From assembly GCA_041663025.1 (NCBI GenBank), contig JBAZRE010000001.1, forward strand, positions 5,912 through 69,911: DNA of 64,000 nt. The letters run 5' to 3'. The position numbers were made by a program, and so were the translations under genes. Below the pieces are notes generated by a model. It searched no databases. It was not told the origin of the DNA and worked only from the letters and a program-made list of their open reading frames with translations. The DNA is from Minisyncoccota bacterium (GTDB lineage Bacteria; Patescibacteriota; Minisyncoccia; Phycocordibacterales; Phycocordibacteraceae). This document shows positions 4,306 to 61,816 of this stretch, piece by piece. Every line of letters begins with the position of its first letter. The stretch's first letter is position 1.

Positions 4306-4884
4306 TTATGGTGCTGTAAAAATAATCCCGTAATGGTGCGACCCCGCGCGAAATGACTTCACCTTATGGAAGCCGTTATTGATAAAAAATTCTTCTGCTT
4401 CATGTTCAGTTATGACCTGCTCTGGCGAAGGACCCATACCCCCGTAACTTCCCGCCCAGTCGACAAGAAGGAGTTTGCCGCCAGACTTCAGCACGCGCCG
4501 TATCTCCTTCAAGAGTTCTGGGCGATTCTCGATTTGGAAGAGCGTGTTCGCAAGCATGACGGCATCAAGCGATGCGTCGCGCAAATGGGTGCCACCAAGC
4601 TTTTCGATATCGCCCCAAACCGTATCGATGATGCTCCGATGGTGTTCGTGTGAATTGAGTTTGAGATGCTTCAACACATCTTCTTGTATATCGATTGCGT
4701 AGACTCTGCCACTTGGCCCGACTACTGCAGCAGCCATGCGCGAATAGTGACCAGAGCCGGCGCCAAAGTCTCCCACCTGCATCCCCTCGCGGAGTCCTAG
4801 CTGGAGGACGTTATCTCTAGGAGAACTGAATTGCGCATCCATACCATATAAAATACCACGTGCGGCCCGCAGCGGGCCGCACAA
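4306..4884 (-). CDS. class I SAM-dependent methyltransferase
   Basis: 192 aa. SAM-binding motif I VGDFGAGSGHYS, an acidic loop AIDIQED, and post-motif LKSGGKLLLVDW. Confidence 0.75.
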   Translation of the reverse strand: MCGPLRAARGILYGMDAQFSSPRDNVLQLGLREGMQVGDFGAGSGHYSRMAAAVVGPSGRVYAIDIQEDVLKHLKLNSHEHHRSIIDTVWGDIEKLGGTHLRDASLDAVMLANTLFQIENRPELLKEIRRVLKSGGKLLLVDWAGSYGGMGPSPEQVITEHEAEEFFINNGFHKVKSFRAGSHHYGIIFTAP

Positions 4885-12467: not shown

Positions 12468-13609
12468 TGCGCGATATTATCCCAGGAGAAGAGCTTTTGA
12501 GTAAATCACACGCTATTGGTCAGTATTACGGTTTCACTCCACTCTCCACGCTCACCGATAAAACGCGCGGCGCCGCCCGTCCAAAAAAAAATATTCCCGA
12601 TGCCGATATTGATTTCGGGAATGATCCGGTAGCTGACACCGTCGTAAACTTTTTGAAACAGTGCCGAAACTCTGAGTGCGTACCCTCTTCGCGGCGACCA
12701 CTCTTTATCTGGCATACGAACATTACCCCAGGGCGTCCAGTGCAGAAAAAAACAATCATACAATTCCACGCGCTCGGCACCGATCGCGCGATTGCAGATG
12801 CGGTTGTCATTCGCGCGCTCGTCGCCCTCTCGCGCGACCTCTTCCGTACTGAGCCCGTGGTGCGTATCAATTCAATGGGCGATAAGGAGACCCGCGCGCG
12901 CTACGCGCGCGAGCTCGGGTGTTATTTCAAAAAACGCGCGAACTCACTCCCCGATGAGTGTGCAGTGTGTGCGAAACGTGATGTGATTGAAGCTGCAGAG
13001 ATGGTTATTGCGCGTGGCTGGGCAGAGGATCTCCCGGCACCGACCGAGCATCTTTCTGATGCGAGCCGTAAACGTTTTGAAGATTTGCTCGAGTATCTTG
13101 AAATGACCGAAACACCCTATGAACTCGCACGCCACCTCATTAGCCGTAGCAATGCATGGAACGATATCTGTTTCGAAGTCATGGTTGGTGAACGACGTGT
13201 AGCATGGGGCTCGCGCTATGGTGATCTCACGAAGCACTTCTTCCCTGGTGCGCCATTCGCCGCAACGGGCGCAGTATTCCAAATCGCGAGTGAAGGTGCC
13301 GTGGTGAAGAAAACGTCACCATCGCGATTCCGCTTCTCCTTTATCCATATTGGCGACGAGGCAAAGCGGCACTCGATCCGCCTCGCTGAAGAATTCCGCA
13401 AAGCGCGCGTCCCGCTCACTCAAGATATCGGTGTCGAATCGCTAGCCGAACAGCTCTATCTCGCCGAGAAGCGCGACAGCCCCTATCTCCTCATTATGGG
13501 CCGCAAAGAGGCGCTTGAGAATTCGGCGATCCTCCGCAATCGCCAAACGCAACAAGAAACCATCCTCCCCCTCCTCGGCCTCGTCGACCGCCTAAAGTCG
13601 TTTGCATAA
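12464..13609 (+). CDS. hisS: histidyl-tRNA synthetase-like class II aaRS (divergent catalytic motifs)
   Basis: 381 aa. QFHALGTD resembles the HisRS motif 2 region and GSRYGDL resembles HisRS GGRYDxL. The C-terminal class II anticodon-binding domain reads FSFIHIGDEAKRHSIRLAEEFRKARVPLTQD…YLLIMGRKEAL. The N-terminal third aligns poorly. Confidence 0.5.
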   Translation: MMRDIIPGEELLSKSHAIGQYYGFTPLSTLTDKTRGAARPKKNIPDADIDFGNDPVADTVVNFLKQCRNSECVPSSRRPLFIWHTNITPGRPVQKKTIIQFHALGTDRAIADAVVIRALVALSRDLFRTEPVVRINSMGDKETRARYARELGCYFKKRANSLPDECAVCAKRDVIEAAEMVIARGWAEDLPAPTEHLSDASRKRFEDLLEYLEMTETPYELARHLISRSNAWNDICFEVMVGERRVAWGSRYGDLTKHFFPGAPFAATGAVFQIASEGAVVKKTSPSRFRFSFIHIGDEAKRHSIRLAEEFRKARVPLTQDIGVESLAEQLYLAEKRDSPYLLIMGRKEALENSAILRNRQTQQETILPLLGLVDRLKSFA

Positions 13610-13612
13610 CTA

Positions 13613-13633
13613 CCGTAAGGTGTCACCTTACGG
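13613..13633. repeat. REP-like hairpin, solitary copy of family 1
   Basis: Perfect palindrome CCGTAAGGTGTCACCTTACGG. The same unit occurs at 40057, 40098 and 40830-40874 next to a RAYT gene. Confidence 0.8.
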
Positions 13634-20590: not shown

Positions 20591-20649
20591 CATGTATCAA
20601 TTTTCATCCTATAGGATAAGAATTGAGACAACTTACTTTCACAAGTCAT
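20591..20649. promoter_or_regulatory. repeat C1: palindromic TCCTATAGGA-centred site upstream of 19726..20502 and downstream of paralog 3
   Basis: CATGTATCAATTTTCATCCTATAGGATAAGAATTGAGACAACTTAC. It is a near-duplicate of 21225-21276. Confidence 0.55.
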
Positions 20650-21227
20650 AGGAGTCGGAAGTGTTCCCGAAGTCGGCGATCTGATTCAAGTGCCTCGGCA
20701 ACGAATGAGAGCATTTCGCCCGTACCGCTCTTGAGGTGTGCGCGGACAAGCCCGATGAATTCATCACAGGGATATGGATATATCCAGACACTGTCCTGAA
20801 GCCTCAAGAAACCAGCGCCCATGAGAAGAGTCCGTAGTTGCGAACGAGCTCGCCTGCGCTTCTCGCGGATATCAAACATAACGACGCGCCACTTGCCATC
20901 CCAGAATACTGGTGCAGGAATGCGGTATTCGTTTGCGTACACCGTTCCAATCACCGCACGACCCTTTTCGGTCAACGAGGCATTGCGGTGTCCATACTTT
21001 CCTGATGTCTTTACGAGACCGGCGTACTCGAGACGGGTTATTGCCTGCGTGATACGACGGTACAAATCTTTCCGATTCGCCACACCACGATCAAGTTTTT
21101 TCAGAATGGTCAGTACCCTCGGAGCGACGAGTGCGACACCGAGCGCCCCACTCACTGCTAGCGTTCGCAAAATGAGATTGCGCATTGGCAGATATTTCCC
21201 GCGCGTTTCCGTCCGCATTTTCTTCAT
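20646..21227 (-). CDS. membrane-anchored winged-helix + Cas2-like domain protein (paralog 3 of 3)
   Basis: 193 aa with a hydrophobic helix (LAVSGALGVALVAP) and a recognition helix plus wing (ITRLEYAGLVKTSGKYGHRNASLTEKG). The C-terminus is WRVVMFDIREKRRRARSQLRTLLMGAGFLRLQDSVWIYPYPCDEFIGLVRAHLKSG. Confidence 0.5.
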   Translation of the reverse strand: MKKMRTETRGKYLPMRNLILRTLAVSGALGVALVAPRVLTILKKLDRGVANRKDLYRRITQAITRLEYAGLVKTSGKYGHRNASLTEKGRAVIGTVYANEYRIPAPVFWDGKWRVVMFDIREKRRRARSQLRTLLMGAGFLRLQDSVWIYPYPCDEFIGLVRAHLKSGTGEMLSFVAEALESDRRLREHFRLL

Positions 21228-21276
21228 GTATCAAATTATATCCTATAGGACAGAAATTGAGACATGTTATTAACAA
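21225..21276. promoter_or_regulatory. repeat C2: roughly 42 bp imperfect palindrome overlapping the paralog 3 start codon and promoter
   Basis: CATGTATCAA-attata-TCCTATAGGA-cagaaa-TTGAGACATG. The outer arms match 9/10 as inverted repeats around a perfect 10-bp core palindrome. Confidence 0.6.
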
Positions 21277-25812: not shown

Positions 25813-26672
25813 GTGAAAAACAAACGGTTATTCTTTATCATGGTGGATGCCCCGATGGCTTCGGGAGCGCCTATGCCGCATGGAAAAAATTTGGCGACAC
25901 GGCAGAATATATTCCATTAAAATTACATGAGCGGCCCATCCCAGAAGGACTCGAGGGTAAACATCTCTTTTTTATCGACTTCACCTATCCGCAGGACATC
26001 ATGGATGAGATTGTGAAGACTGCTGCGTCTGTGACGGTTCTCGATCACCATCTCGGCATACAAGAGGTTGTGGAGAGTATGCCGGATCATGTGTTTGATG
26101 AAAAACGATCTGGTGCAACTATTGCATGGAGCTATTTTCATCCCGATGTTCCCATCCCGTTCTTGTTAAAATATGTTGAAGATGCGGATCGGTATGTTTT
26201 CTTACTTCCTGATTCTCGCGCGGTGATCGCCTACGCGTATGCGCAGCGATTTACTTTTGAAGATTGGGATCATCTCGTGCAAGAATTTGAAAATGAACAA
26301 ACGCGCGCAACATTGATAGAGAAGGGTAAGGTATATGCAGAATATTTTGCAATCTTAGTCGAACAAATCTCCAAAAAGGCGATACTCGTGTCGTTTGAAG
26401 GACACACCTGTTATCTCTCAGCCGCGACTGACATGTTCAAATCGGACGTGGGGAACAATCTTGCTCACCTACATCCACCGCTTGCCATTATCGCAAACCT
26501 GCATGGCGACGTCATAAACGTGTCACTCCGGAGTGACTCCAGCGTTGATGTATCAGTTATTGCACGGAAATATGGAGGAAATGGACATCCTCATGCGGCC
26601 GCCTTTCGATTGAAGTGGGGAGACCCACTCCCTTGGGTAGTGTTAGATGAAAATGAAAATCCTAGCCATTGA
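25809..26672 (+). CDS. DHH-family phosphoesterase (NrnA-like)
   Basis: VILYHGGCPDGFGSAYA and VLDHH (the DHH motif), plus a DHHA1-like C-terminus (…GGNGHPHAAAF). Confidence 0.7.
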   Translation: MSEKQTVILYHGGCPDGFGSAYAAWKKFGDTAEYIPLKLHERPIPEGLEGKHLFFIDFTYPQDIMDEIVKTAASVTVLDHHLGIQEVVESMPDHVFDEKRSGATIAWSYFHPDVPIPFLLKYVEDADRYVFLLPDSRAVIAYAYAQRFTFEDWDHLVQEFENEQTRATLIEKGKVYAEYFAILVEQISKKAILVSFEGHTCYLSAATDMFKSDVGNNLAHLHPPLAIIANLHGDVINVSLRSDSSVDVSVIARKYGGNGHPHAAAFRLKWGDPLPWVVLDENENPSH

Positions 26673-27891
26673 AACCTCGTGTGACGAGACCGCAATTGCG
26701 ATACTCGAGTGCACTGGAGATGAAACGCATGCTGAGTTTAAAGTACTTGGGAACGCACTCCTCTCACAAATAGAAATTCACAAACAATATGGCGGCGTCT
26801 TCCCTGCCCTCGCAAAACGCGAGCACGCGAAGAATCTCGTGCCGATTCTCGAGGCAGCACTCGAGGAAGCAGAGCTATTGCATGAAGACACCCAAGCAAT
26901 CGCGGATGAGACCCGCGCCAAAATTTCAGAAATTTTGGCGCGTGAGCCCGGTCTCACTGAAACGTTTTTCGAATTCATTTCTGAATGTGAGCCTCCTGCG
27001 ATCGACGAAATCGCCGTCACGGCCGGCCCCGGCCTCGAGCCGGCGCTCTGGGTCGGTATTAATTTTGCAAAGGCGCTCGCGCTCGTTTGGCAGAAGCCGC
27101 TAGTCGCGGTGAACCATATGGAGGGACACATACTCGCCGCACTTGCTCGGCAAGAAGCACGAAGCACGAAGCACGAAGAACCAAACGAATCTCAAACAGA
27201 AAAATTGGAAATTAAAAATGTGCAATTCCCCATACTCGCCCTCCTGATTTCTGGTGGACACACGCAGCTCGTCTTGATGCGTGAATGGCTTCAGTACGAG
27301 CTTATTGGAGAGACGCGTGATGATGCTGTTGGCGAGGCCTTCGATAAGGTTGCGCGCATGCTCGCACTCCCCTACCCTGGCGGTCCTGAGATCTCCAAGC
27401 TTGCAGAAGAAGTTAGGACATCGAATGTCCTAGTTTCTGAAATAGGACATTCGATGTCCAGACCCGAATTCAAACTCCCGAGGCCAATGATCAATGAAAA
27501 CAGCTGCGACTTCTCATTTGCCGGACTAAAAACTGCGGTGTTAAATTTATTGAAAAAGATCCCCGACATAAGTGACGATGATAAGAAACACATAGCGCAC
27601 GAATTCGAAAATGCCGTCACTGATGTTTTGTGGAAGAAGACTGCGCGTGCACTTGAAGAAACTGGCGCCCAAACACTCATCATCGGTGGTGGCGTCTCGG
27701 CCAACACTCACATCAAGCGGACTTTCCAAGAAAATGTCTCCCAAGAATTTTCTGAAGTTGCACTCAAGATACCGGCGGCATCGCTCTCAACCGATAACGC
27801 TATTATGATTGCCATCGCTGGCTACTATCGTGCCTTGCGCAAAGAATTTTCAAATGATTTTGTTGCAAATGGCAACCTCCCTCTTATCTGA
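26647..27891 (+). CDS. tsaD: tRNA N6-adenosine threonylcarbamoyltransferase TsaD (Kae1/YgjD family)
   Basis: MKILAIETSCDETAIAI…NHMEGHILA…ISGGHTQL…GGGVSAN. It carries two in-frame insertions. Confidence 0.9.
   Translation: MKMKILAIETSCDETAIAILECTGDETHAEFKVLGNALLSQIEIHKQYGGVFPALAKREHAKNLVPILEAALEEAELLHEDTQAIADETRAKISEILAREPGLTETFFEFISECEPPAIDEIAVTAGPGLEPALWVGINFAKALALVWQKPLVAVNHMEGHILAALARQEARSTKHEEPNESQTEKLEIKNVQFPILALLISGGHTQLVLMREWLQYELIGETRDDAVGEAFDKVARMLALPYPGGPEISKLAEEVRTSNVLVSEIGHSMSRPEFKLPRPMINENSCDFSFAGLKTAVLNLLKKIPDISDDDKKHIAHEFENAVTDVLWKKTARALEETGAQTLIIGGGVSANTHIKRTFQENVSQEFSEVALKIPAASLSTDNAIMIAIAGYYRALRKEFSNDFVANGNLPLI
27413..27462. repeat. in-frame palindromic element inside tsaD
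   Basis: GGACATCGAATGTCC – 14 nt – GGACATTCGATGTCC. Each 15-mer is self-complementary and the two are reverse complements. It encodes RTSNVLVSEIGHSMSRP. Confidence 0.8.
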
Positions 27892-27904
27892 TATATTTTA
27901 AATA

Positions 27905-30076
27905 ATGGACGATAAATTTCTCAAACCATACAACTCCTCCGCGACCGAGTCGCGCATCTACACAGCATGGGAGAAGAGTGGCCTCTTCAACCCAGATGAG
28001 TGTGTGAAGCGAGGTTTTGCAAAAACAGATTCGCCAAAGTATTCAATAGTGCTCCCGCCACCAAACGTCACTGGGCGACTACACATGGGTCACGCGCTCA
28101 TGCTCGCTGTCGAAGACATTTTTGTTCGCTATAAGCGCATGTGCGGTTATCGCACACTCTGGACTCCAGGCACTGATCACGCAGCTATCGCGACACAATC
28201 GGTTGTTGAGAAACAAATAAAAAAAGAAGAAAACAAAAGTCGTCACGATCTCGGACGCGAAGAATTACTCAAGCGCATTGGGGTATTCGCAAACGAAAGT
28301 CACGACACTATCGTGAGCCAATTAAAGACGATGGGTGCCTCGCTCGATTGGTCGCGCGAGGCCTTCACGCTTGATGAGACGCGGAGCCGTGCAGTTCGTA
28401 CCGTCTTCAAGCGTATGTATGATGCCGGTCTTATTTATCGAGGACTACGTATTGTGAATTGGGACCCAAAAGGCCAAACAACTATTTCTGATGATGAGAT
28501 TGTATATGAAGAACGTGCCGCAAAACTCTATACCTTTCGCTACAGTAAGGACTTCCCTATTTCTATCGCGACCACACGGCCTGAGACCAAGGTAGGTGAT
28601 GTTGCTGTGGCGGTGCATCCAGATGACGCGCGCTATACGGCCTTCGTCGGCAAAGAATACGATGCGGTTTTTTGTGATGTACCGATACACATAAAAATTG
28701 TTGCTGATAAAGAAGTCGACCCAACCTTTGGCACTGGTGCCGTCGGTCTCACGCCCGCCCATAGTCATGTTGACTGGGAGATTGCTGATCGGCATCTGCT
28801 CTCGCATGAAGTAATTATCATAAACGAGTACGCGAGGATGACAGTCGCTGGGCGCCTATTGGATAAGAAAACCACTGAAGCGAGAGAGGTGGTTATTGAA
28901 TGGCTGAAGGAAGAAGGCCTGTTGGAAAAGACAGAAGATACCGTGCAAAATATCGCAACCGCCGAACGTACCAGTGGCATCATCGAACCTCTGCCGAAAT
29001 TGCAATGGTGGATCGAGGTGAATAAGCCAATTCCTGGTCGTGGAAAGACACTGAAAGAGCTCATGCTTGAGCCGGTACGTTCAGGAGCCATTAAGATCAT
29101 TCCAGAATATTTTGAAAAAACGTATTTTCACTGGATAGAAAATCTTCGTGACTGGTGCATCAGCCGGCAGATCTGGTATGGGCATCGTATCCCCGTCTGG
29201 TATCGAGGTGAAGAAATCAGTGTCGGTATTGAACCTGCTGAAGCTGGTTGGACGCAAGATGAAGATACACTCGATACATGGTTTTCATCAGGACTTTGGA
29301 CCTTCTCTACTTTAGGCTGGCCAGACGACACCGATGATTTCAAAAACTACCATCCGACCGATTTGCTCGAGACTGGCTACGATATTCTCTTCTTCTGGGT
29401 CGCCCGCATGATACTCATGACCGAATTCACGATTGGTGATATCCCTTTTAAAACAGTGTATCTCCACGGAATGGTTCGCGATGCCCAAGGGCGCAAAATG
29501 TCAAAGTCACTCGGCAATAACCTTGATCCGCTTGATATCACGGCAAAGTTCGGTGCGGATGCTGCGCGTATGGCACTTGTTGTCGGCAATACGCCGGGAA
29601 CCGACATGCGAATAAGTGAGGATAAAGTGAAGGGCTACAAGCACTTCTCAAACAAACTCTGGAATATCGCTAGGTTTATTCTAGAAAACACCGTGGATAC
29701 GCCACAAAATCATGTAGGACGTACTACGTCCTACATGAGTGATAGTGACAAAAAGATTCTTTCTGAACTTGATGTTCTCACAAAAGAAATTACAAATGAT
29801 ATTGATGAATATCGCATCTATCTAGCCGCAGAAAAAATATATCACTACGCGTGGCACGAGCTTGCAGATAAAATTATTGAAGAATCAAAACCGATTCTCG
29901 CTGGCAGTGATGTGGCCGCAAAAGAATCGCGTGCTATCCTGCTCATACTCCTGCTCACTCGCGTTCTGAAGCTCCTCCACCCCTTCATGCCCTTCATTAC
30001 CGAAGAGATCTGGCAATCTATGCCGACAAAAGATTCTGAATTCCTAATGGTTGCCCCTTGGCCAGTGGTAGAATAA
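27905..30076 (+). CDS. valS: valine--tRNA ligase (compact form)
   Basis: 723 aa. PPPNVTGRLHMGHAL (HIGH) and KMSKSLGN (KMSKS). Confidence 0.9.
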   Translation: MDDKFLKPYNSSATESRIYTAWEKSGLFNPDECVKRGFAKTDSPKYSIVLPPPNVTGRLHMGHALMLAVEDIFVRYKRMCGYRTLWTPGTDHAAIATQSVVEKQIKKEENKSRHDLGREELLKRIGVFANESHDTIVSQLKTMGASLDWSREAFTLDETRSRAVRTVFKRMYDAGLIYRGLRIVNWDPKGQTTISDDEIVYEERAAKLYTFRYSKDFPISIATTRPETKVGDVAVAVHPDDARYTAFVGKEYDAVFCDVPIHIKIVADKEVDPTFGTGAVGLTPAHSHVDWEIADRHLLSHEVIIINEYARMTVAGRLLDKKTTEAREVVIEWLKEEGLLEKTEDTVQNIATAERTSGIIEPLPKLQWWIEVNKPIPGRGKTLKELMLEPVRSGAIKIIPEYFEKTYFHWIENLRDWCISRQIWYGHRIPVWYRGEEISVGIEPAEAGWTQDEDTLDTWFSSGLWTFSTLGWPDDTDDFKNYHPTDLLETGYDILFFWVARMILMTEFTIGDIPFKTVYLHGMVRDAQGRKMSKSLGNNLDPLDITAKFGADAARMALVVGNTPGTDMRISEDKVKGYKHFSNKLWNIARFILENTVDTPQNHVGRTTSYMSDSDKKILSELDVLTKEITNDIDEYRIYLAAEKIYHYAWHELADKIIEESKPILAGSDVAAKESRAILLILLLTRVLKLLHPFMPFITEEIWQSMPTKDSEFLMVAPWPVVE
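29711..29737. repeat. perfect 13-1-13 palindrome in frame inside valS
   Basis: CATGTAGGACGTA C TACGTCCTACATG, encoding HVGRTTSYM. The core GGACGT…ACGTCC resembles the tsaD and recG elements. Confidence 0.7.
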
Positions 30077-35820: not shown

Positions 35821-37502
35821 GGTTTTGGTGGTTCTCCAGCAGACGGAACAAGAGCGGCGGCGCGTTCGCTCGGTGTACGGATGAGCTTACTGATGGCATT
35901 GACTACGATACGAAATTCTTCGTTCTGGGTGAGATAGAGTGCGAACGCCGCCGCAATAAGACCGACCACCCCAGCAACCAACCCTTGTGTGAGGACTGAT
36001 GCAAGTGTTGTGAGTGGTGCGATGCCACCTTCAAAGGAGAGGGTTACATATGCCGCCGCGCCGCCAGCGATTGCAGCAATACAGCCGTCAAGGAGCGGTC
36101 GTGCAAGTGTACGCGCGAGAGCTGGAGAGACACTGCGAAGCGCCACGAGAGAAAGAACGGCTAAGAATATCTGGCCGAGTGTTGCCGCAAGTGCTAAAAG
36201 TAGGATGGCCGTCCCCGGTACATCACCGACGCGCAAGAGAGCGGCAAGCGAAGCAGGCATTCCTGCAGGCGGAAAAGAAAGAAACAGTACAGCGAGAAAT
36301 ACGGTGAGTAATGCTCCTGCAGATTGATACGCGAGCGGTCGCCATGATTGGCGTACTGCATACAATGCACGTGAGAATAGGAGCACGAGCCCTTGTGCGA
36401 CAAGCCCAACTGCAAGAATGGCCAGAAGTGCTGCAGTGAGTCGTGTCGCGTCCCAATCAAAGGCACCCGTTCCAAGAATCACGCGCACGATATGCGCACG
36501 CAGGACCGTGATGAGGCCGAGCGAAACAACGGACCAGAGGATAATATGCCGTGCGCTCGCAGATAGAATATTGGTAAACTCCTCACGTCGCTCAAGAGCT
36601 GATGCCTCAGAAAGTGCAGGAAACGCTGCAATGGCATACGAAGCCCCAATGAGCGAGAGCGGAACCGCCTCGAGATTACTAGCAAGAGTGAATACAGAGA
36701 CCGATCCTGAGCCAATCCTAGAAGCAAATGATGTTAAGAAAAGTGCGGTAATTGAGCCCATACCAAGCGCGAGCGAGCGAGGAATAGAGTCTCGAATGAC
36801 CGGCACCATAATAGCGAAGCTCGGTATACGGAAGTGTGGCACAACATCCGCTTCTATAAGCACAGGAATATTGACGGCGAGATAGGCAATCGCGCCAATC
36901 ACGACGCCCATTCCTATTCCAGGCAAACCAAAGTATGGATAAAGCAAAACTGCACCGAGAATAATGCCGAGGTTATATAGAACTGGCGATGTGGCGAAGA
37001 GCATAAAGCGCCGATGCACCTGCGTTACGCTCGAGAACACACCAGAAAGTCCCAACAAAATTGGTTGTATCAATAAGATACGTCCGAGAAGAATGAAATC
37101 GGACTGGTACGGAGAAGCAACAAGATTTGGATACAGAAGAGCTAAGAATTGAGGCATGAAGATAGCGAGGGCAACGCAGATCAAACCGCCAACACCGAAT
37201 AGAAATGTTGCTGATTCGGATAGGAGCCGACGCGTCGCTTCCCTATCCATTCCAGTAATGCGTGGAATGATGACATACGCGCTCACAAGCGAGGATACAA
37301 GGGCGAAGACAAGATCTGGCACACGAAATGCTGAGTAGTAGAGGTCGAGCACCTGCCCTGCACCAAAAGAATGTGCAAATACCCTGTCGCGCAAGAGCGC
37401 GAGAGCCTGAGAAGCAAGCGTGAGTCCGGCCAGCAAATACGCGGCCTGATGCAGGCCGCGTATTGGTGCCGCGATGCGCTCGAAGATTCGTCGAACCATC
37501 AC
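35817..37502 (-). CDS. murJ: lipid II flippase MurJ (MviN family)
   Basis: 561 aa with about 14 TM helices. The N-terminal region resembles MviN, and the C-terminal extension is hydrophobic. Confidence 0.75.
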   Translation of the reverse strand: MMVRRIFERIAAPIRGLHQAAYLLAGLTLASQALALLRDRVFAHSFGAGQVLDLYYSAFRVPDLVFALVSSLVSAYVIIPRITGMDREATRRLLSESATFLFGVGGLICVALAIFMPQFLALLYPNLVASPYQSDFILLGRILLIQPILLGLSGVFSSVTQVHRRFMLFATSPVLYNLGIILGAVLLYPYFGLPGIGMGVVIGAIAYLAVNIPVLIEADVVPHFRIPSFAIMVPVIRDSIPRSLALGMGSITALFLTSFASRIGSGSVSVFTLASNLEAVPLSLIGASYAIAAFPALSEASALERREEFTNILSASARHIILWSVVSLGLITVLRAHIVRVILGTGAFDWDATRLTAALLAILAVGLVAQGLVLLFSRALYAVRQSWRPLAYQSAGALLTVFLAVLFLSFPPAGMPASLAALLRVGDVPGTAILLLALAATLGQIFLAVLSLVALRSVSPALARTLARPLLDGCIAAIAGGAAAYVTLSFEGGIAPLTTLASVLTQGLVAGVVGLIAAAFALYLTQNEEFRIVVNAISKLIRTPSERAAALVPSAGEPPKP

Positions 37503-40056: not shown

Positions 40057-40118
40057 CCGTAAGGTGACACCTTACGGTTTTTGGTATTTCCCCAGCTCCG
40101 TAAGGTGACACCTTACGG
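40057..40118. repeat. two tandem REP-like hairpins (family 1) upstream of the RAYT gene
   Basis: CCGTAAGGTGACACCTTACGG at 40057-40077 and again at 40098-40118. Confidence 0.85.
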
Positions 40119-40155: not shown

Positions 40156-40827
40156 ATGACAAAGAGAGATGCCCCGTTTGCTGTCGGCGAGTGGTACCAC
40201 TGCTACAACCGTGGTATTGAAAAGCGTACCGTGTTTGAAGATACCAGGGATTATCATCGCTTTCTCGAACTCCTTTACTTGGCAAATGATGAGTTCCCTC
40301 TCCGGCGTGAAGATATCGGCACATATAAATTTGAAGAAATATTAAAGATTCCCCGCGGCAAGAAATTGGTCGCCATTGGAGCGTTCTGCCTGATGCCTAA
40401 CCACTTCCATCTGGTGCTGAAGGAGATCTCGGAGGGAGGTATCACCGCATTTATGCGAAAAATCGGAACATCCTATACTTTGTATTTTAATGCACGGCAT
40501 GAGAGGACTGGAAACCTCTTCCTAAAGCCATTCCGATCCCTTCATGTATCTAACGACCGTTACTTCCAACACCTCATTAACTATGTTCACTGCAATCCAG
40601 CAGCTCTCTATGAACCTGGGTGGAAAACTAACCAGGTTGTGGACCCTCAATTCTTGGGAGAACAGATTGCAGCTTATCCATACTCAAGTCTTGGTGCCCA
40701 TACTGGTGCACACCCATCGACCAGACCCATCCTGGATGCAGAAGTATTCTCCATAACGCATACTGTTCGGATACAAAAGATGCTGCAAGAAGCACGACAG
40801 TATTACGCTGATTCTAATCTTCCGTAA
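40156..40827 (+). CDS. IS200/IS605-family Y1 (HUH) transposase-like protein, REP-associated (RAYT-like)
   Basis: ATG at 40156 (MTKRDAPF…) is preferred. The N-terminal part of the longer track ORF overlaps the REP hairpins. WYHCYNRG…, the HUH motif CLMPNHFHLVL, and the catalytic Tyr region YVHCNPAA. Confidence 0.75.
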   Translation: MTKRDAPFAVGEWYHCYNRGIEKRTVFEDTRDYHRFLELLYLANDEFPLRREDIGTYKFEEILKIPRGKKLVAIGAFCLMPNHFHLVLKEISEGGITAFMRKIGTSYTLYFNARHERTGNLFLKPFRSLHVSNDRYFQHLINYVHCNPAALYEPGWKTNQVVDPQFLGEQIAAYPYSSLGAHTGAHPSTRPILDAEVFSITHTVRIQKMLQEARQYYADSNLP

Positions 40828-40874
40828 GGCCGTAAGGTGTCACTTTACGTCAGGCGTAAAGTGACACCTTACGG
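40822..40874. repeat. compound REP-like hairpin (family 1) downstream of the RAYT gene
   Basis: CCGTAAGG + CCGTAAGGTGTCACTTTACG-tcaggc-CGTAAAGTGACACCTTACGG (a 20-bp stem). Confidence 0.8.
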
Positions 40875-40898: not shown

Positions 40899-41241
40899 CG
40901 GACTGAACTAAGCGATCGCCCGCCAACATCTGCGAAGTTGTGGCGGGAGGAAAGTCCGAACATACTCCTGCCGTAAGGCGGGAAAATAGGTAGCGGGTAA
41001 CGCCCGTCGTCCGTGAGGATAGAGGTGACCACAGAAACGTCCTGAGCGAAAGTGAAGGAATTCCCTCGTGGAATACGCCCGTCGCGAGATGGGAATGCAA
41101 CGACTAAATCCTTACCCGTATGCAAGGCCGTGCCCGACCACACTTCGAGTGTGACGGGAGTGACGCTTAAGGCGTTGAGTAATTAACGGCTCAGATAAAT
41201 GATCGCTCACGACAGAATTCGGCTTATCGGCTCAGTCCACA
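40899..41241 (+). ncRNA. rnpB: RNase P RNA (bacterial type A-like)
   Basis: P1 pairs GGACTGA (40900-40906) with TCAGTCC (41232-41238). The P4 5' strand is GGGAGGAAAGTCCGAACA, the P4 3' strand is ACAGAATTCGGCTTATCGG, and the internal sequence GCGAAAGTGAAGG is also present. Confidence 0.8.
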
Positions 41242-41248
41242 AAGATGC

Positions 41249-46732: not shown

Positions 46733-47641
46733 TTACTGCGCTCCTGTATTGAGAAGTGCTTTTATTCTGTCTGGGATTGGTGGATGGGTAGAGAAGAGCT
46801 TCTCGATCCAGCCAGCACTACCCGTGGACTTCACTCCGAATGGATCGCCAATGAAGAGATGCGCCGTGGCGAGATTCGCACTCTTCATTGGCGCCTGGTA
46901 ACTGCCGAGCTTCTGGAGTGCCGAAGCAAGTCCTTCTGGATAACGCGTGAGGAGCGCCCCCGAAGCATCGGCGAGAAATTCGCGACGGCGTGAGACGGCG
47001 AGCTGAATGAGCTTAGCAGCAATAGGCGCGAGGACAATACCAACGACCGCGAGAATCATGATCAGCGCGTTGCCCCCTTCACGATCATTATTACTTCGCC
47101 CGCCGCCCCAAAATGAGACGCGCAAGAAGATGTTCGCAACGATTGCGACGAATCCAGCAAGCACCACCGCCACAGTCATCAGGAGTATGTCGCGATTCTT
47201 GATATGCGAGAGCTCATGTGCGATGATGCCCTCTATCTCAGCTCTCGTCATCATTGCGAGCAGTCCGGTTGTCGCACATACCACCGCATGATCCTCATCG
47301 CGACCAGTCGCGAAGGCATTTGGTGCTGGATCGTCAATCACATAGAGCTTCGGCTTCGGCAGCCCCGCCGTGATTGCGAGGTTCTCGGTGACGGTATAGA
47401 AGTCAAAGAATTCTTCACGTGAGGCCGGTCGCGCATGATTGAGTGAGAGCACGAGCTTGTCTGACTGCCAGTAGGCGTAGAAGTTGGTTGCAATAGCGAT
47501 GACTGCTGCGAAGAAGAGAATTGTCGGATTTCCGTAATACCAAGAAATGGCATATCCAACTGCCATGACGACAACAACAAACCCGAGGATGAGCGCCCAG
47601 GTCCGGCGGACGTTACTCGCACGTTCGGCATAGAGATTCAT
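46733..47641 (-). CDS. htpX: M48-family zinc protease HtpX
   Basis: 302 aa. TM helices and HELSHIKNRD (HExxH). Confidence 0.9.
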   Translation of the reverse strand: MNLYAERASNVRRTWALILGFVVVVMAVGYAISWYYGNPTILFFAAVIAIATNFYAYWQSDKLVLSLNHARPASREEFFDFYTVTENLAITAGLPKPKLYVIDDPAPNAFATGRDEDHAVVCATTGLLAMMTRAEIEGIIAHELSHIKNRDILLMTVAVVLAGFVAIVANIFLRVSFWGGGRSNNDREGGNALIMILAVVGIVLAPIAAKLIQLAVSRRREFLADASGALLTRYPEGLASALQKLGSYQAPMKSANLATAHLFIGDPFGVKSTGSAGWIEKLFSTHPPIPDRIKALLNTGAQ

Positions 47642-50045: not shown

Positions 50046-52292
50046 ATGACTCCTGGTGATCTGATAGAAAAGCACTTTACTCGGCTCAAGCCGGAGCAGA
50101 AGCGGGCGTTGCATAAGCTGAAGATTCGCACAGTTCGTGATCTGCTCTACCACTTCCCCGCGCGCTACGAGAACGCGGGTGCAACGGGAACGATTGCTGG
50201 GATAGCAGCAGGCGCCGAGGTAACGCTCTATGGCACCATCAGGAAGCCTGATATCAGGAAGACGTGGAAGAGCCGTCGACCGATCGCCGAGGCATGGCTC
50301 GAAGATGCCTCTGGGAAGATTAAGATGATGTGGTTCAGCCAGCCCTATATCGCGAAGACTCTTCACGATGGGATGGTGGTTAAAGTGAGTGGGAAGGTGG
50401 CAGGAGCAGGAGCGAAGATTTATTTGGCGAACCCAACGATCGATAAATCGCCAATAGCTCCAGACGCAGTGCATAATTCTTTATTCAATCAGAATGTTAG
50501 GACATCGGATGTCCAAGTCATCGGAGGACATCCGATGTCCCAGAGCCGAGGTGACTCCTCGCGTGAGAGAGGTGTCTCCTCGGCTTCGGCTCCGGGACTC
50601 TTTCCAGTATATCCGGAGAGCCAGGGAGTCTCTTCGCTCTGGTTCTTACATGCGGTAAAAAAGATTTTTGAGGCGGGAGTGCACGAACAAATTGAAGACC
50701 CGATTCCAGCTGAAATTCTCGCACGCTACAATCTCCCCTCGCTCTCTTCTGCGATTGTTTTTATACATGCACCAAAAAAACTTTCGGACGCAACGGCAGC
50801 GCGCAAACGATTCGCCTTTGAAGAAGTGTTCGCGCTCCAGATAGTGATGCAACAACGCCGTCGCCTCCTACTCTCTGAAAAGGCGCTGCCCGTCGCCGTC
50901 GATCGTTCTAAACTCGCTGATTTTATTGCCTCATTCCCCTTCCCTGCTACCGCCGCGCAGATGCACGCGATTGAAGCTATCGTGAGCGATTTTGAAAAAT
51001 CAAGTCCGATGTTGCGACTTCTTGAAGGCGATGTGGGTAGCGGCAAGACCGCTGTCGCAGCCGCCACTGCCTATTTAGTAGCGACATCTCTGCCAAAAGG
51101 CAGAATTGCCGGTACTTTGCAGGTTGCCTATCTCTGCCCGACTGAAATCCTCGCAAAACAGCATTTTTCAACTTTTGTTTCTTATTTTAAAGACCATCCG
51201 ATCCCCATTGGTCTTATTACCGGCAGTGAATGTCGTAAGTTCCCGTCAAAAGTGCGGTATGAAGAATCTGCGAAACTCTCAAAAGTAGCGTTTAAGAAGA
51301 TGGTAGCGAATGGTGAAATACCGATTGTTATCGGCACGCACGCCATCGTCGAAAAATCAGTCAGTTTTAAATATTTTGCCTACGCGATTATTGATGAACA
51401 GCATAGGTTTGGCACGATCCATCGACAGAAGCTCGCGACCAAGGGTGATATTGCGCCACACTTGCTATCAATGACCGCAACGCCAATTCCGCGCACACTC
51501 GCGCTCACGCTTTATGGCGATCTGGATTTAACTCTTCTTGATGAAATGCCAGTGGGACGCAAGCCAGTCATCACTGAGATACTTGTGCCAAAAGAGCGTG
51601 CGAGAGCATACGAGCGCGTGCGCGCCGAGCTCGCGGCCGGCCATCAGGCCTATGTGATCTGCCCCAGAATAGACGAACCAGATCCTGCTAAAGAACTCGC
51701 GCTCATCGCGAAATCAGTGAAGGCCGAGGCGGCGCGCCTTCAAAAAGACGTATTCCCCGAGGCGGAAATAGGAATATTGCACAGTAAAATGACGCCGTCA
51801 GAAAAAGAAGAGACGATGCGAGAATTTGAGAAAGGTAAAATAGATATTCTCGTCGCGACGTCAGTGGTTGAAGTGGGTGTGAACGTCGCGAATGCGACCG
51901 TGATTCTCATCGAGGGTGCCGAACGCTTCGGGCTCGCGCAGCTGCATCAGCTGCGCGGACGAGTTATTCGCTCAACGTATCAATCCTATTGTTTTGCCCT
52001 TCCAGAATCATCTGGCGATACGACACGTGAACGCATGAAAGCATTTAAGAATGCAAAAAACGGCTTCGAGCTCGCCGAATATGACCTCGCGCTTCGCGGC
52101 GCGGGCGAGCTCGCTGGCGGGCGGCAGTGGGGCGTCTCAGACATCGCGATGGAGGCGCTTAAAAATATAAAATTAGTTGAAGCCGCCCGCACCGAAGCGG
52201 CGACTCTTGTCGCCGCCGATCCCGACCTCCACAATCACCCTGTCCTTCTCCTCCGAGCTGCCACTGCGGATAAAGAGATGCATTTGGAGTGA
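50046..52292 (+). CDS. recG: ATP-dependent DNA helicase RecG
   Basis: 748 aa. Wedge/OB N-domain, helicase motif I GDVGSGKT, DEQHRFG, and motif VI QLRGRV. It carries an in-frame palindromic insertion near codons 150-165. Confidence 0.9.
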   Translation: MTPGDLIEKHFTRLKPEQKRALHKLKIRTVRDLLYHFPARYENAGATGTIAGIAAGAEVTLYGTIRKPDIRKTWKSRRPIAEAWLEDASGKIKMMWFSQPYIAKTLHDGMVVKVSGKVAGAGAKIYLANPTIDKSPIAPDAVHNSLFNQNVRTSDVQVIGGHPMSQSRGDSSRERGVSSASAPGLFPVYPESQGVSSLWFLHAVKKIFEAGVHEQIEDPIPAEILARYNLPSLSSAIVFIHAPKKLSDATAARKRFAFEEVFALQIVMQQRRRLLLSEKALPVAVDRSKLADFIASFPFPATAAQMHAIEAIVSDFEKSSPMLRLLEGDVGSGKTAVAAATAYLVATSLPKGRIAGTLQVAYLCPTEILAKQHFSTFVSYFKDHPIPIGLITGSECRKFPSKVRYEESAKLSKVAFKKMVANGEIPIVIGTHAIVEKSVSFKYFAYAIIDEQHRFGTIHRQKLATKGDIAPHLLSMTATPIPRTLALTLYGDLDLTLLDEMPVGRKPVITEILVPKERARAYERVRAELAAGHQAYVICPRIDEPDPAKELALIAKSVKAEAARLQKDVFPEAEIGILHSKMTPSEKEETMREFEKGKIDILVATSVVEVGVNVANATVILIEGAERFGLAQLHQLRGRVIRSTYQSYCFALPESSGDTTRERMKAFKNAKNGFELAEYDLALRGAGELAGGRQWGVSDIAMEALKNIKLVEAARTEAATLVAADPDLHNHPVLLLRAATADKEMHLE
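50499..50539. repeat. in-frame palindromic element inside recG
   Basis: GGACATCGGATGTCC – 11 nt – GGACATCCGATGTCC. The 15-mers are self-complementary and the peptide is VRTSDVQVIGGHPMSQSR, similar to the tsaD insert. Confidence 0.8.
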
Positions 52293-52306
52293 GCTTGAAA
52301 ACAAGA

Positions 52307-52346
52307 AAACAAGGGTGCCCCTTGCAGCAAGGGGCACCCTTGTTTT
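52307..52346. repeat. GC-rich REP-like hairpin (family 2) between recG and 52346..53182
   Basis: AAAACAAGGGTGCCCCTTG-cagca-AGGGGCACCCTTGTTTT (stem of at least 15 bp). It may also act as a bidirectional terminator. Confidence 0.8.
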
Positions 52347-53222: not shown

Positions 53223-53269
53223 CAAGGGTGCCCCTTGTATCTTGCACAAGCTTACAAGGGGCACCCTTG
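53223..53269. repeat. REP-like hairpin (family 2) upstream of the second RAYT gene
   Basis: CAAGGGTGCCCCTTG – 17 nt – CAAGGGGCACCCTTG. Confidence 0.8.
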
Positions 53270-53293: not shown

Positions 53294-53923
53294 ATGAGAA
53301 AACGCGATTATAAAGAATTCGCTCCCGACACGTCCTATCACATCTATAACCGTGGAAACGGTAAAATGGACATTTTTCGTGATGAACAAGATTACTTGAA
53401 CTTTCTCAAGCGCCTTCGCCTCTTGCTCGGTAAAACAAGGGGCACCCTTGCATCGTCAATTCGAGTTACGCCATTTGAATCAGACGACTTCTCGCTTATT
53501 GCCTACTGTCTAATGCCAAATCACTTCCACTTGCAGGTAGAACAATGCGGAGAAGTGTCATTAAGTAGCCTCTTGCTTAAGGTGTGTACGAGTTATTCTA
53601 TGTATTTCAATCGTAAGTATGACCATGTCGGGCACGTGTTCCAAGATCAATTTAAAGCCATTCCGGTTGAGTCAGATAATCAAATGGCCGCATTGTCGGC
53701 ATACATACACCAAAATCCAAAAGTGGCAGGGTTAGTAGACACTCTCGACGCGTGGGTTTATAGCAGTTATCCGGATTATATTGGACTTCGGCAGGGCGAT
53801 CTTATTGATCCCGAATCAGTACTCGGTCAATTTCCAAATAAAGAAGCCTACAAAAGTTTCGTGGACGAGCAATACGAAGAAATTCTTGAACGAAAAAATA
53901 TCAGAGAACTCCTTCTTGATTAA
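53294..53923 (+). CDS. IS200/IS605-family Y1 (HUH) transposase-like protein, REP-associated (RAYT-like), second copy
   Basis: 209 aa. YHIYNRGNGKMDIF…, the HUH motif CLMPNHFHLQV, and the Tyr region YIHQNP. A family-2 REP half-site AAAACAAGGGGCACCCTTG lies in frame at 53433-53451 and encodes KTRGTLA. Confidence 0.75.
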   Translation: MRKRDYKEFAPDTSYHIYNRGNGKMDIFRDEQDYLNFLKRLRLLLGKTRGTLASSIRVTPFESDDFSLIAYCLMPNHFHLQVEQCGEVSLSSLLLKVCTSYSMYFNRKYDHVGHVFQDQFKAIPVESDNQMAALSAYIHQNPKVAGLVDTLDAWVYSSYPDYIGLRQGDLIDPESVLGQFPNKEAYKSFVDEQYEEILERKNIRELLLD

Positions 53924-53924
53924 C

Positions 53925-53969
53925 TGCAAGGGGCACCCTTGTAATTTAATTACAAGGGTGCCCCTTGCG
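53925..53969. repeat. REP-like hairpin (family 2) downstream of the RAYT gene
   Basis: CTGCAAGGGGCACCCTTG-taatttaat-TACAAGGGTGCCCCTTG. Confidence 0.8.
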
Positions 53970-55989: not shown

Positions 55990-56025
55990 AAAAGATACTT
56001 CACCATAACACTAAAACACTAATTT

Positions 56026-56427
56026 GTGGAGGCGCGGGGAGTTGAACCCCGGTCCGAGAATGTTTATGAAAGCGATTCTACGACGCATAGTCAGCGTTAG
56101 ATTTAAGGCAGGATGCGAGGAACGCAGACGAAACCATTCCTGCCCGATCCCTTATTTAAATGTGCCGAGCGGGAGGTCGGACATCGATTCAACAGATAAT
56201 TCCGCCCCTGCCTCCGGCTGTAGAAACCCGAGAGGAGAGACGTCGCGCTAGGCGTGTGCCGTTAGGCTGCGTAGGCGAACGCGAAGTCAGACACACCGAA
56301 GTATGGAGACTTCACGCTTGCAAGAGTGTTCTTGGCAAGTTTGATTTCCCGCCAGTTTTAAGTGTTAGCGGGAGAGCACTGCGTCGCACGTCTTTCAAAG
56401 AACAGACCGTCAAAGCCGGTCACCCCC
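56026..56427 (-). ncRNA. ssrA: tmRNA (transfer-messenger RNA)
   Basis: The 5' end is GGGGGTGACCGGCTTTGACGG and the 3' end is …GGACCGGGGTTCAACTCCCCGCGCCTCCA, giving a tRNA-Ala-like acceptor with G3-U70 and a T-arm. An internal tag frame ends …FAFAYAA-TAA. It lies directly downstream of smpB on the same strand. Confidence 0.8.
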
Positions 56428-58426: not shown

Positions 58427-58569
58427 TTTGTATACAAGAGCCAGCAACCTATCGAGGTTGCTGGCTCTTCTTTTTGCTTTTTTGTCCTATGTCCGCTAAG
58501 GTGAGTTCAGAAAACAGTTGGGTTGGCTGGCTGTTTATTTTGTACATTCTAAACAAGAAGGAGGGCGAC

Positions 58570-60997: not shown

Positions 60998-61816
60998 TTA
61001 TGCAAGCAGAGTACCGCCGTCAACGACAATTTGTGAGCCAGTCATATAGGAGGAGAGATCCGAGGCGAGGAAGAGCGCGACCTTAGCAATTTCGTCAGCA
61101 TCTGCCATGCGATGCATAGGGATCTTCGCAATGAAAGGTTCCATTATTTTCGCGAGTGCTGGATCCACCGGCTTCCCGAGCCCTGTGCCGGGCGTCGAGA
61201 CGCCGCCAGGCGCAATAGCGTTTACCCATATCTTATGTGGCGCTAGCTCAAGCGCAAGATTTTTGGTAAAGCCCCAGAGGCCGTGTTTTGAAGCATCGTA
61301 GAATGCAAGGCCGATTGAAGAAGGGTGGAGTGCATCAATCGAAGTGATATTGATGATAGAGCCACCCCTGCCCTGCTCGATCATCTGCTTCGCCGCAGCT
61401 TGCGCACAGAGGAATGCGCCTTTGAGATTTATCGCGAGAATCTTCTCAAAATCTGCGAGTGATGCGTCCATCACCGATACTTCGGGATAGATCCCTGCAT
61501 TGTTGATGAGGATATCCACGCCGCCGAGCTCACTCACAGCTTTTGTAATCATCGATTCAACTTGTGATTCATCAGAAACATCAACAGCGAATGCGGTAGA
61601 GCCATTGATTTTTGCCGCGGCCGCCTCGGCGGCCGCGGTGTCTTTATCGGCAATGAGTACTTTTGCGCCTGCCTCTGCGAGCCTGCTCGCAATCGCAAAG
61701 CCAATCCCCATTGCACCGCCCGTCACAATCGCGACCTTCTCTGAGAGATCCATACATTCTGAAATGGTTTTTTGTTCCATGATCTTAGTATACCAACGAA
61801 ATGATAGCGGCGACAC
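60998..61816 (-). CDS. short-chain dehydrogenase/reductase (SDR) family oxidoreductase
   Basis: VAIVTGGAMGIGFAIA (TGxxxGxG), NAG, and Y…K in SIGLAFYDASKHGL. The probable start is MDLSEK… at about 61753. Confidence 0.8.
   Translation of the reverse strand: MSPLSFRWYTKIMEQKTISECMDLSEKVAIVTGGAMGIGFAIASRLAEAGAKVLIADKDTAAAEAAAAKINGSTAFAVDVSDESQVESMITKAVSELGGVDILINNAGIYPEVSVMDASLADFEKILAINLKGAFLCAQAAAKQMIEQGRGGSIINITSIDALHPSSIGLAFYDASKHGLWGFTKNLALELAPHKIWVNAIAPGGVSTPGTGLGKPVDPALAKIMEPFIAKIPMHRMADADEIAKVALFLASDLSSYMTGSQIVVDGGTLLA

Follow-up and report, generated by a model that had tools for sequence, protein, structure and literature searches.

The question raised by this locus is how a palindromic element of 44 nucleotides comes to lie, in frame and without a stop codon, within the gene tsaD. 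The DNA studied is a 64-kb stretch (hereafter the window) of one Patescibacteria (candidate phyla radiation, CPR) metagenome-assembled genome (MAG), in which genes were called as stop-to-stop open reading frames (ORFs). We propose, with a probability of roughly three in four, that the element is a dispersed, non-autonomous element of the type described as dimers of repetitive extragenic palindromes (REPs) or as REPINs (REP doublets forming hairpins), which is translated through as a loop of its host protein. To judge from sequence comparison, the best-supported origin of the doublet lies in the hairpins at the ends of Y1 transposase genes, from a clade that is found across CPR and resembles REP-associated tyrosine transposases (RAYTs).

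The host gene (26647-27891, plus strand) is an intact ORF of 414 amino acids belonging to the Pfam TsaD family. Its product is 100% identical to protein P0001, annotated as TsaD in a Patescibacteria NCBI MAG, and its nearest homologues stem from Patescibacteria/CPR. The element itself (27416-27459; here and below, no strand is assigned to palindromes) is a REPIN-like doublet composed of the unit GGACATCGAATGTCC (27416-27430), a 14-nt spacer (tagtttctgaaata) and the inverted unit GGACATTCGATGTCC (27445-27459). Each 15-mer is self-complementary, with a 6-bp stem and a 3-nt centre or, equivalently, a GGAC stem and the loop ATCGAAT, and the two 15-mers are exact reverse complements of each other. 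The first-pass annotation of this DNA had described the palindrome in just these terms and placed it at 27413-27462, a span that comprises the element plus three flanking bases on either side. It had also stated correctly that the reading frame is not disrupted: the element reads VRTSNVLVSEIGHSMSRP with no stop, the read-through peptide is RTSNVLVSEIGHSMS, and the predicted tryptic peptide across it is TSNVLVSEIGHSMSR. As single-stranded DNA, the 44 nt fold into a single hairpin of 17+2 bp with a free energy (dG) of -20.5 kcal/mol and z = -10.3 against dinucleotide shuffles. The pattern GGACATNNNATGTCC is matched four times in the window compared with 0.11 matches expected, and none of 100 shuffles reached this number. 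GGACAT units of this subfamily are flanked by T-rich sequence (TTT directly before GGACAT) or by GTTA. An intein or intron was rejected because no such features are present and the ORF is continuous, a CRISPR repeat because there is no array, and an assembly artefact because the element occurs in many independent assemblies.

A near-identical element, already pointed out in the first-pass annotation, resides in recG (50046-52292, plus strand). This gene encodes 748 amino acids, about 27 above the commonest orthologue length, and a database entry identical to its product bears the name Candidatus Paceibacterota bacterium. This second copy of the family (50500-50540) consists of GGACATCGGATGTCC (50500-50514), an 11-nt spacer and GGACATCCGATGTCC (50526-50540), the copy being read as VRTSDVQVIGGHPMS (RTSDVQVIGGHPMS). 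Both copies share the same reading frame, VRTS(N/D)V...GH(S/P)MS. Their centre triplets differ, CGA/TCG in tsaD versus CGG/CCG in recG, and the change in recG is compensated in the second arm. Directly 3' of the recG doublet lies an unrelated imperfect hairpin (50544-50585; GCCGAGG...CCTCGGC, encoding SRGDSSRERGVSS; dG -16.7, z = -2.8), which explains the extra length of the window RecG. Some RecG orthologues contain this second hairpin alone, and in the window two different elements are found side by side at one site.

The peptide encoded by the tsaD element is an insertion, as the first-pass annotation had expected from an alignment with orthologues. Between AEEV and PEFKLPRPM the window protein has 14-15 residues without counterpart in the solved TsaD structures (PDB), and among 120 CPR orthologues (69-79% identity) the stretch is hypervariable in length as well as in sequence, the shortest versions having 11 residues where the window has 21. 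Many orthologues hold variants of VRTSDV..GHPMS or decayed halves thereof, e.g. VRTSGELGSSTSKF. In an AlphaFold2 model built on 58 orthologues, the mean predicted local distance difference test (pLDDT) score is 86.8, with values below 50 at residues 262-271 (the element peptide), 173-183 (another insertion) and 409-414 (the C-terminal tail). Of all explanations considered, the least probable is that these residues are a native, functional TsaD peptide such as a metal- or partner-binding motif GHxMS. Several orthologues do share VRTSDV..GHPMS at this position, but the peptide is missing in every solved TsaD and in many orthologues from CPR, is modelled with a pLDDT below 50, occurs identically in RecG, and is encoded by DNA that is read in the other two frames elsewhere. 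We infer that the element is translated and has no function of its own in TsaD.

Comparison of alleles supports the same picture for recG. Among 120 RecG orthologues, the commonest length is 720-721 amino acids (80-86% identity to the window protein), and these proteins do not contain the element. In DNA sequence, L122 has an empty site, and L123, L030 and the window have one filled with a GGACAT doublet, i.e., empty and filled alleles coexist at 80-86% protein identity, and L124 carries a different doublet of equal 6-3-6 design (CAAGGTTCGACCTTG-caa-CAAGGTCGAACCTTG) at this site. The tsaD loop of L119 contains another perfect hairpin with a 23-bp stem, and orthologous tsaD loops display differing stems around one TCTG loop. 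A neighbour-joining tree calculated for the 120 TsaDs minus the loop is star-like (70-79% identity), with the element types interleaved, and does not distinguish a single ancient insertion from repeated ones. That tsaD and recG look like hot spots may be because only copies in permissive loops survive or because earlier hairpins serve as insertion sites.

The palindrome is a repeat far beyond this genome, in line with the first-pass annotation, which had staked its interpretation on the element not being unique. A doublet-pattern scan of 185,579 species-representative GTDB genomes (596 Gb), sampled on the perfect GGACAT doublet, yielded at least 118 doublet loci, compared with about 0.06 expected by chance according to our own arithmetic. 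The following figures refer to the matches listed. The loci (at least 118) fall into 93 from named CPR, 16 from unnamed MAGs and nine from other phyla; the CPR names include Paceibacterota, Moran-, Kaiser-, Saccharibacteria, Falkow-, Nealson-, Nomura-, Jorgensen- and Niyogibacteria, and several genomes have 5-10 doublet loci each. Of 123 doublets, 77% reside in ORFs of at least 150 amino acids, compared with 85% for random positions in the same loci. In the host ORFs the first palindrome is read as GHxMS in 24 cases, as TSxV in 41 and as DIxCP in 30; all three frames are thus used, which rules out a selected protein motif and makes this a DNA-level element. Matches to 120 Pfam families, all with ordinary housekeeping functions, were obtained for 87 host ORFs of at least 200 amino acids, and the hosts include TsaD (six), class I and II tRNA synthetases, helicases, UvrA, Mur ligases, MnmA and Dus. 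Most centre triplets are CGG/CCG or CGA/TCG. Complementary centres were counted in 98 of 125 doublets, compared with about 1 in 64 expected by chance (again our arithmetic). Both head-to-head and tail-to-tail arrangements occur. A scan of viral contigs returned only five matches. As a side observation, two loci from a MAG labelled Gammaproteobacteria (L081 and L102) have GGACAT doublets with CPR-like complementary CCG/CGG centres, which could be due to mis-binning or transfer; GGACAT doublets were seen at seven other non-CPR loci, and most of the centres in these are non-complementary.

The preserved pairing of the arms could also indicate that the hairpin is a functional structure under selection, be it for mRNA pacing or decay, as a DNA cruciform or as a protein-binding site, with its spread being secondary. 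We regard this as unlikely. The arms have indeed remained complementary through sequence changes, as is evident from the CGA/TCG and CGG/CCG variants and from the 98 of 125 centres just mentioned, but such complementarity is equally expected for REPINs or for correction by template switching. The different stems around the same TCTG loop in orthologous tsaD loops, the conservation of a neighbouring palindrome (26914-26942) by compensatory substitutions, and an RNA fold of about -31 kcal/mol for the tsaD loop region (element plus about 15 nt of flank per side) also fit a selected structure. On the other hand, many TsaD and most RecG orthologues lack any hairpin at the site, no Rfam family matched at the tsaD element in a scan of the window, and identical 15-mers are found in three frames across 120 unrelated host families, in intergenic positions and beside transposase genes.

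It is this last association that connects the doublets to a putative source, as in other genomes related hairpins flank genes for Y1 transposases. In L056, GGACAT doublets border a Y1 gene homologous to those of the window both upstream and downstream. L046 has a doublet of the exact tsaD 15-mers just 3' of the Y1 gene, a second one in frame inside the gene, and a different palindrome upstream; the in-frame doublet and a single unit at 53436-53450 in one of the Y1 genes of the window occupy an equivalent loop before the HUH motif. For the L056 protein, 4,204 homologues were found at E <1e-20, and the best 120 of these 4,204 all belong to PF01797, those with a taxon name being CPR. In all four further homologues looked up (L130, L132, L133 and L134), hairpins are situated within about 10-75 nt of the gene ends. 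The upstream one is ..GAC-ATCGCAA-GTC.. in L130, L132 and L134 and the reverse complement of that hairpin in L133, while the downstream one is ..GAC-TTGCGAT-GTC.. in all four; the stems of these end hairpins vary yet stay paired (TAAGGAC, GTACGAC, TCTCTTGAC). Taken together, Y1 genes lie between hairpins related to GGAC-ATCGNAW-GTCC in five CPR genomes, and a sixth has such hairpins on just one side of the gene along with an in-frame copy. With GGAC-ATCGAAT-GTCC, the window unit represents a variant of the end hairpin GAC-ATCGCAA-GTC, and the tsaD element of L120 (GGACATCGGAAGTC-acacatctgatgtg-GGACTTCCGATGTCC) equals a left end of this kind joined to a right end. The complete CPR genome CP129473.1 possesses a Y1 gene flanked by TAAGGACATCGCAAGTCCTTA.

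This association also bears on the idea that template switching during replication generates and perfects the palindromes locally, at quasi-palindromes and with no transposase involved, an explanation that we consider slightly less probable still than a selected structure. Such a process cannot place one and the same 15-mer in tsaD, in recG, in dozens of genes across CPR classes and beside Y1 genes, and would at best explain the matching of the arms. That it might contribute is indicated by the number of perfect inverted repeats in the window whose arms measure 11 nt or more, namely 17, eight of them inside genes, where shuffles contain about 0.15, and by single units beside doublets in recG alleles (HQGSTLDT vs QGSTLQQGRTLD), which look like local duplication. 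In E. coli, template-switch mutations at quasi-palindromes are known to perfect hairpins.

The window itself contains two genes for RAYT-like Y1 (IS200-like) transposases, each embedded in palindromes of its own. Gene 1 (40156-40827, plus strand) scores 26.5 bits for PF01797 against a gathering threshold of 23, has the HUH and Tyr motifs and carries its own hairpin (CCGTAAGG); palindrome matches identified a doublet of CCGTAAGGTGACACCTTACGG upstream (40057-40118) and a doublet of the same family directly downstream (40830-40874). Gene 2 (53294-53923, plus strand) scores 39.3 bits for PF01797. It is preceded by a doublet of CAAGGGTGCCCCTTG and CAAGGGGCACCCTTG (53223-53269), followed by another of the CAAGGGTGCCCCTTG family (53926-53968), both again found as palindrome matches, and has its own palindrome in frame, since the unit at 53436-53450 is CAAGGGGCACCCTTG. 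Both proteins exceed the gathering score of Pfam Y1_Tnp, and their sole NCBIfam match is the REP-associated tyrosine transposase NF047646. Side by side with these genes, further features were noted. A single CGTAAGGTGTCACCTTACG unit of the family flanking gene 1 lies at 13614-13632, after an ORF ending at 13609 and 26 kb away from gene 1. The RNase P RNA (class A; 40900-41242) follows directly after the downstream doublet of gene 1. A CAAGGG-family doublet just after the recG stop (52306-52346) is intergenic and terminator-like.

Several findings weigh against the proposal that the tsaD element is a REPIN-type element derived from such a transposase. Within the 64-kb window neither Y1 gene is flanked by GGACAT units, the palindromes of both being of other kinds; for this genome a cognate transposase is thus hypothetical, and the GGACAT copies, of which just two doublets were seen in these 64 kb, could be relics. 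The Y1 proteins reach only 22-48 bits on NF047646, whose cut-off is 80, and the CPR units have neither of the tags, GTAG or CGTC, by which the described REP super-families are marked. Furthermore, neither tsaD nor recG offers a clean target-site duplication or an exact empty/filled junction, because the 'empty' alleles hold remnants or single units. The net gain in length is 24-36 nt and thus below the size of the element, so that the sites look as if they had been repeatedly re-occupied and decayed.

On the proposed REPIN-type origin, the events could be envisaged as follows. Two inverted hairpin units, each with the loop ATCGNAW between the stem halves ..GGAC and GTCC.., would form one hairpin of 40-50 nt. 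Such units would correspond to the ends recognised by HUH/Y1 (IS200-like, RAYT-like) transposases acting on single-stranded DNA hairpins, and the doublet would represent the two ends of a transposase cassette minus the gene, copied or moved in trans. The enzymes of IS200/IS605 elements and RAYTs recognise hairpins in single strands and employ HUH/Tyr chemistry, and mobilisation in trans by a transposase is likely because of this known chemistry. In CPR, the elements would land or persist in protein-coding genes, where copies that keep the frame in tolerant surface loops may survive and give rise to a disordered loop, in TsaD probably residues 257-271 or thereabouts. The complementarity of the arms may be retained because only hairpin-competent copies propagate or because one arm is corrected by the other through template switching.

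The observations suggest a role, both general and of long standing, for palindromic insertions as a source of protein segments in this lineage. A second palindrome in tsaD is instructive in this respect. At 26914-26942 lies a perfect 14+1+14 palindrome (CGCGCCAAAATTTC-a-GAAATTTTGGCGCG) encoding RAKISEILAR, which is predicted with confidence to form a helix in a CPR-specific TsaD insertion. Across orthologues the palindrome is kept by compensatory changes that lead to covariation of amino acids (RANISEMLAR, RDKIAAILSR, RTKISEILVR), K/I being replaced by N/M and A/A by D/S or T/V. In six DNA sequences, two of the 14 pairs differed in both partners, and a covariation score as high as the observed one came up in 3 of 500 shuffles. 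A wider generalisation can be put forward tentatively, and we rate it somewhat below even odds: in CPR, REPIN-type hairpins may reside predominantly inside essential genes, return repeatedly to the same set of permissive loops (in tsaD, recG, valS, uvrA and tRNA synthetase genes) and provide a standing source of new protein segments, and some old palindromes such as that for the RAKISEILAR helix may have become fixed as structural parts, with compensatory changes that keep the hairpin forcing the covariation of amino acids.

Other repeats in the window are recorded here in their own right. In valS, a perfect palindrome at 29710-29738 (TCATGTAGGACGTA-c-TACGTCCTACATGA, z = -5.8) is part of a length-variable stretch that is longer by 6-13 residues than in three of five compared orthologues (L001, L120 and L121). 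The second hypervariable loop of TsaD (residues ~168-187, pLDDT below 50) coincides with three tandem copies of the heptamer AAGCACG at 27160-27185; this insertion was rejected as a hairpin since it is a tandem repeat with z = -0.4. In orthologues the loop varies widely, sometimes with QGRTL/SSQG-type peptides that are typical of CAAGGT palindromes. More perfect inverted repeats with arms of 11-15 nt lie in or at the edge of ORFs (4860-4882, 37436-37464, 46846-46893, 58436-58469 and 61615-61638). Two similar imperfect palindromes centred on CCTATAGG (20593-20630 and 21225-21266) flank an ORF on the minus strand (20646-21227) and may be an operator or promoter pair or belong to another repeat family. 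The window also encodes a transfer-messenger RNA (56024-56427, minus strand) and eight tRNAs.

The finding provides a concrete source, at the level of DNA, of the lineage-specific insertions and the hypervariable loops seen in conserved proteins of CPR and, on the proposed REPIN-type origin, extends REP/RAYT biology to a huge radiation with reduced genomes, in which an "extragenic" class of elements lives mostly in genes. On the practical side, the hairpins disturb alignments of marker proteins (TsaD, RecG, tRNA synthetases, UvrA), and they probably break assemblies, because many of the transposase homologues are found on contigs of 1-3 kb. The elements also constitute a natural catalogue of insertion-tolerant sites, and the conserved core hairpin together with an abundant transposase family (4,204 homologues) makes the mobilisation mechanism testable in vitro.

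The literature describes REPs, REPINs and RAYTs in detail (PMC2817692, PMC3116915), and 'REPtrons' and Y1 transposases associated with terminal inverted repeats are related known systems (PMC3116915, PMC2817692, PMC3733652). In 2013, Di Nocera et al. reported that REPs and dimers also occur inside genes, among them uvrA, recB and a tRNA synthetase gene, where they encode 20-30 residues, most REPs in their data being intergenic, and equated RPE-4 and RPE-6, two families of Rickettsia palindromic elements (RPEs), with CGTC-type REPs (PMC3733652). The view of the first-pass annotation that an element of this kind had not been reported therefore holds for CPR, for which literature searches on REPs, RAYTs or palindromes yielded nothing specific, and does not hold for other phyla, given the intragenic dimers known since 2013. 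Distinctive here are the CPR host, the mostly intragenic location, the small size and the lack of tags. The CPR elements resemble the REP/REPIN-RAYT systems in their short palindromic units, which in inverted pairs form one larger hairpin with co-varying arms, in the occurrence of head-to-head and tail-to-tail dimers, in single Y1/HUH genes flanked by the same units (in relatives), in the pairing of different transposase genes with different palindromes within one genome, and in occasional intragenic dimers in repair and tRNA-related genes. They differ in that the units are shorter (15-21 nt, dimers 33-60 nt), that about three quarters of the copies lie inside long ORFs at near-random coding occupancy and are thus not 'extragenic', that one core hairpin is common to many CPR classes, and that the transposases are divergent, falling below the NCBIfam RAYT cut-off and sometimes containing their own element in frame.

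The first-pass annotation had compared the tsaD element with RPEs, and as an analogy this is apt: like RPE-1 to RPE-8, it is a palindromic repeat that sits in frame in a conserved housekeeping gene, is presumably translated and is tolerated in a surface region, and in both cases the bacterium is host-dependent with a reduced genome. As a statement of kinship it fails. The two are unrelated in sequence and occur in different phyla (CPR vs Rickettsiales), and RPE-1, at about 100-150 bp and in any case >100 nt, is much longer than the 44 nt found here. To our knowledge, no transposase is associated with RPEs. We therefore consider it very improbable that the element belongs to the RPE family or to another classical family of transposable elements of the miniature inverted-repeat type (MITEs), although in-frame palindromic insertion into housekeeping genes is RPE-like, the inverted arms of a MITE are present and RPE-4 and RPE-6 count as CGTC-type REPs (PMC3733652). 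A CGTC or GTAG tag is missing, the tsaD and recG junctions show no target-site duplication, and CGTC REPs have no associated transposase (PMC3733652), whereas the CPR units have one.

The comparison with IS200/IS605 elements returns us to the RAYT-like origin that we favour. The tsaD element is geneless, the Y1 proteins are longer (about 210-225 amino acids) and RAYT-like, and no TnpB partner was seen beside the Y1 genes of the window. What the systems have in common is a Y1 HUH transposase and sub-terminal hairpins at both ends, and single-strand 'peel and paste' is the likely mechanism.

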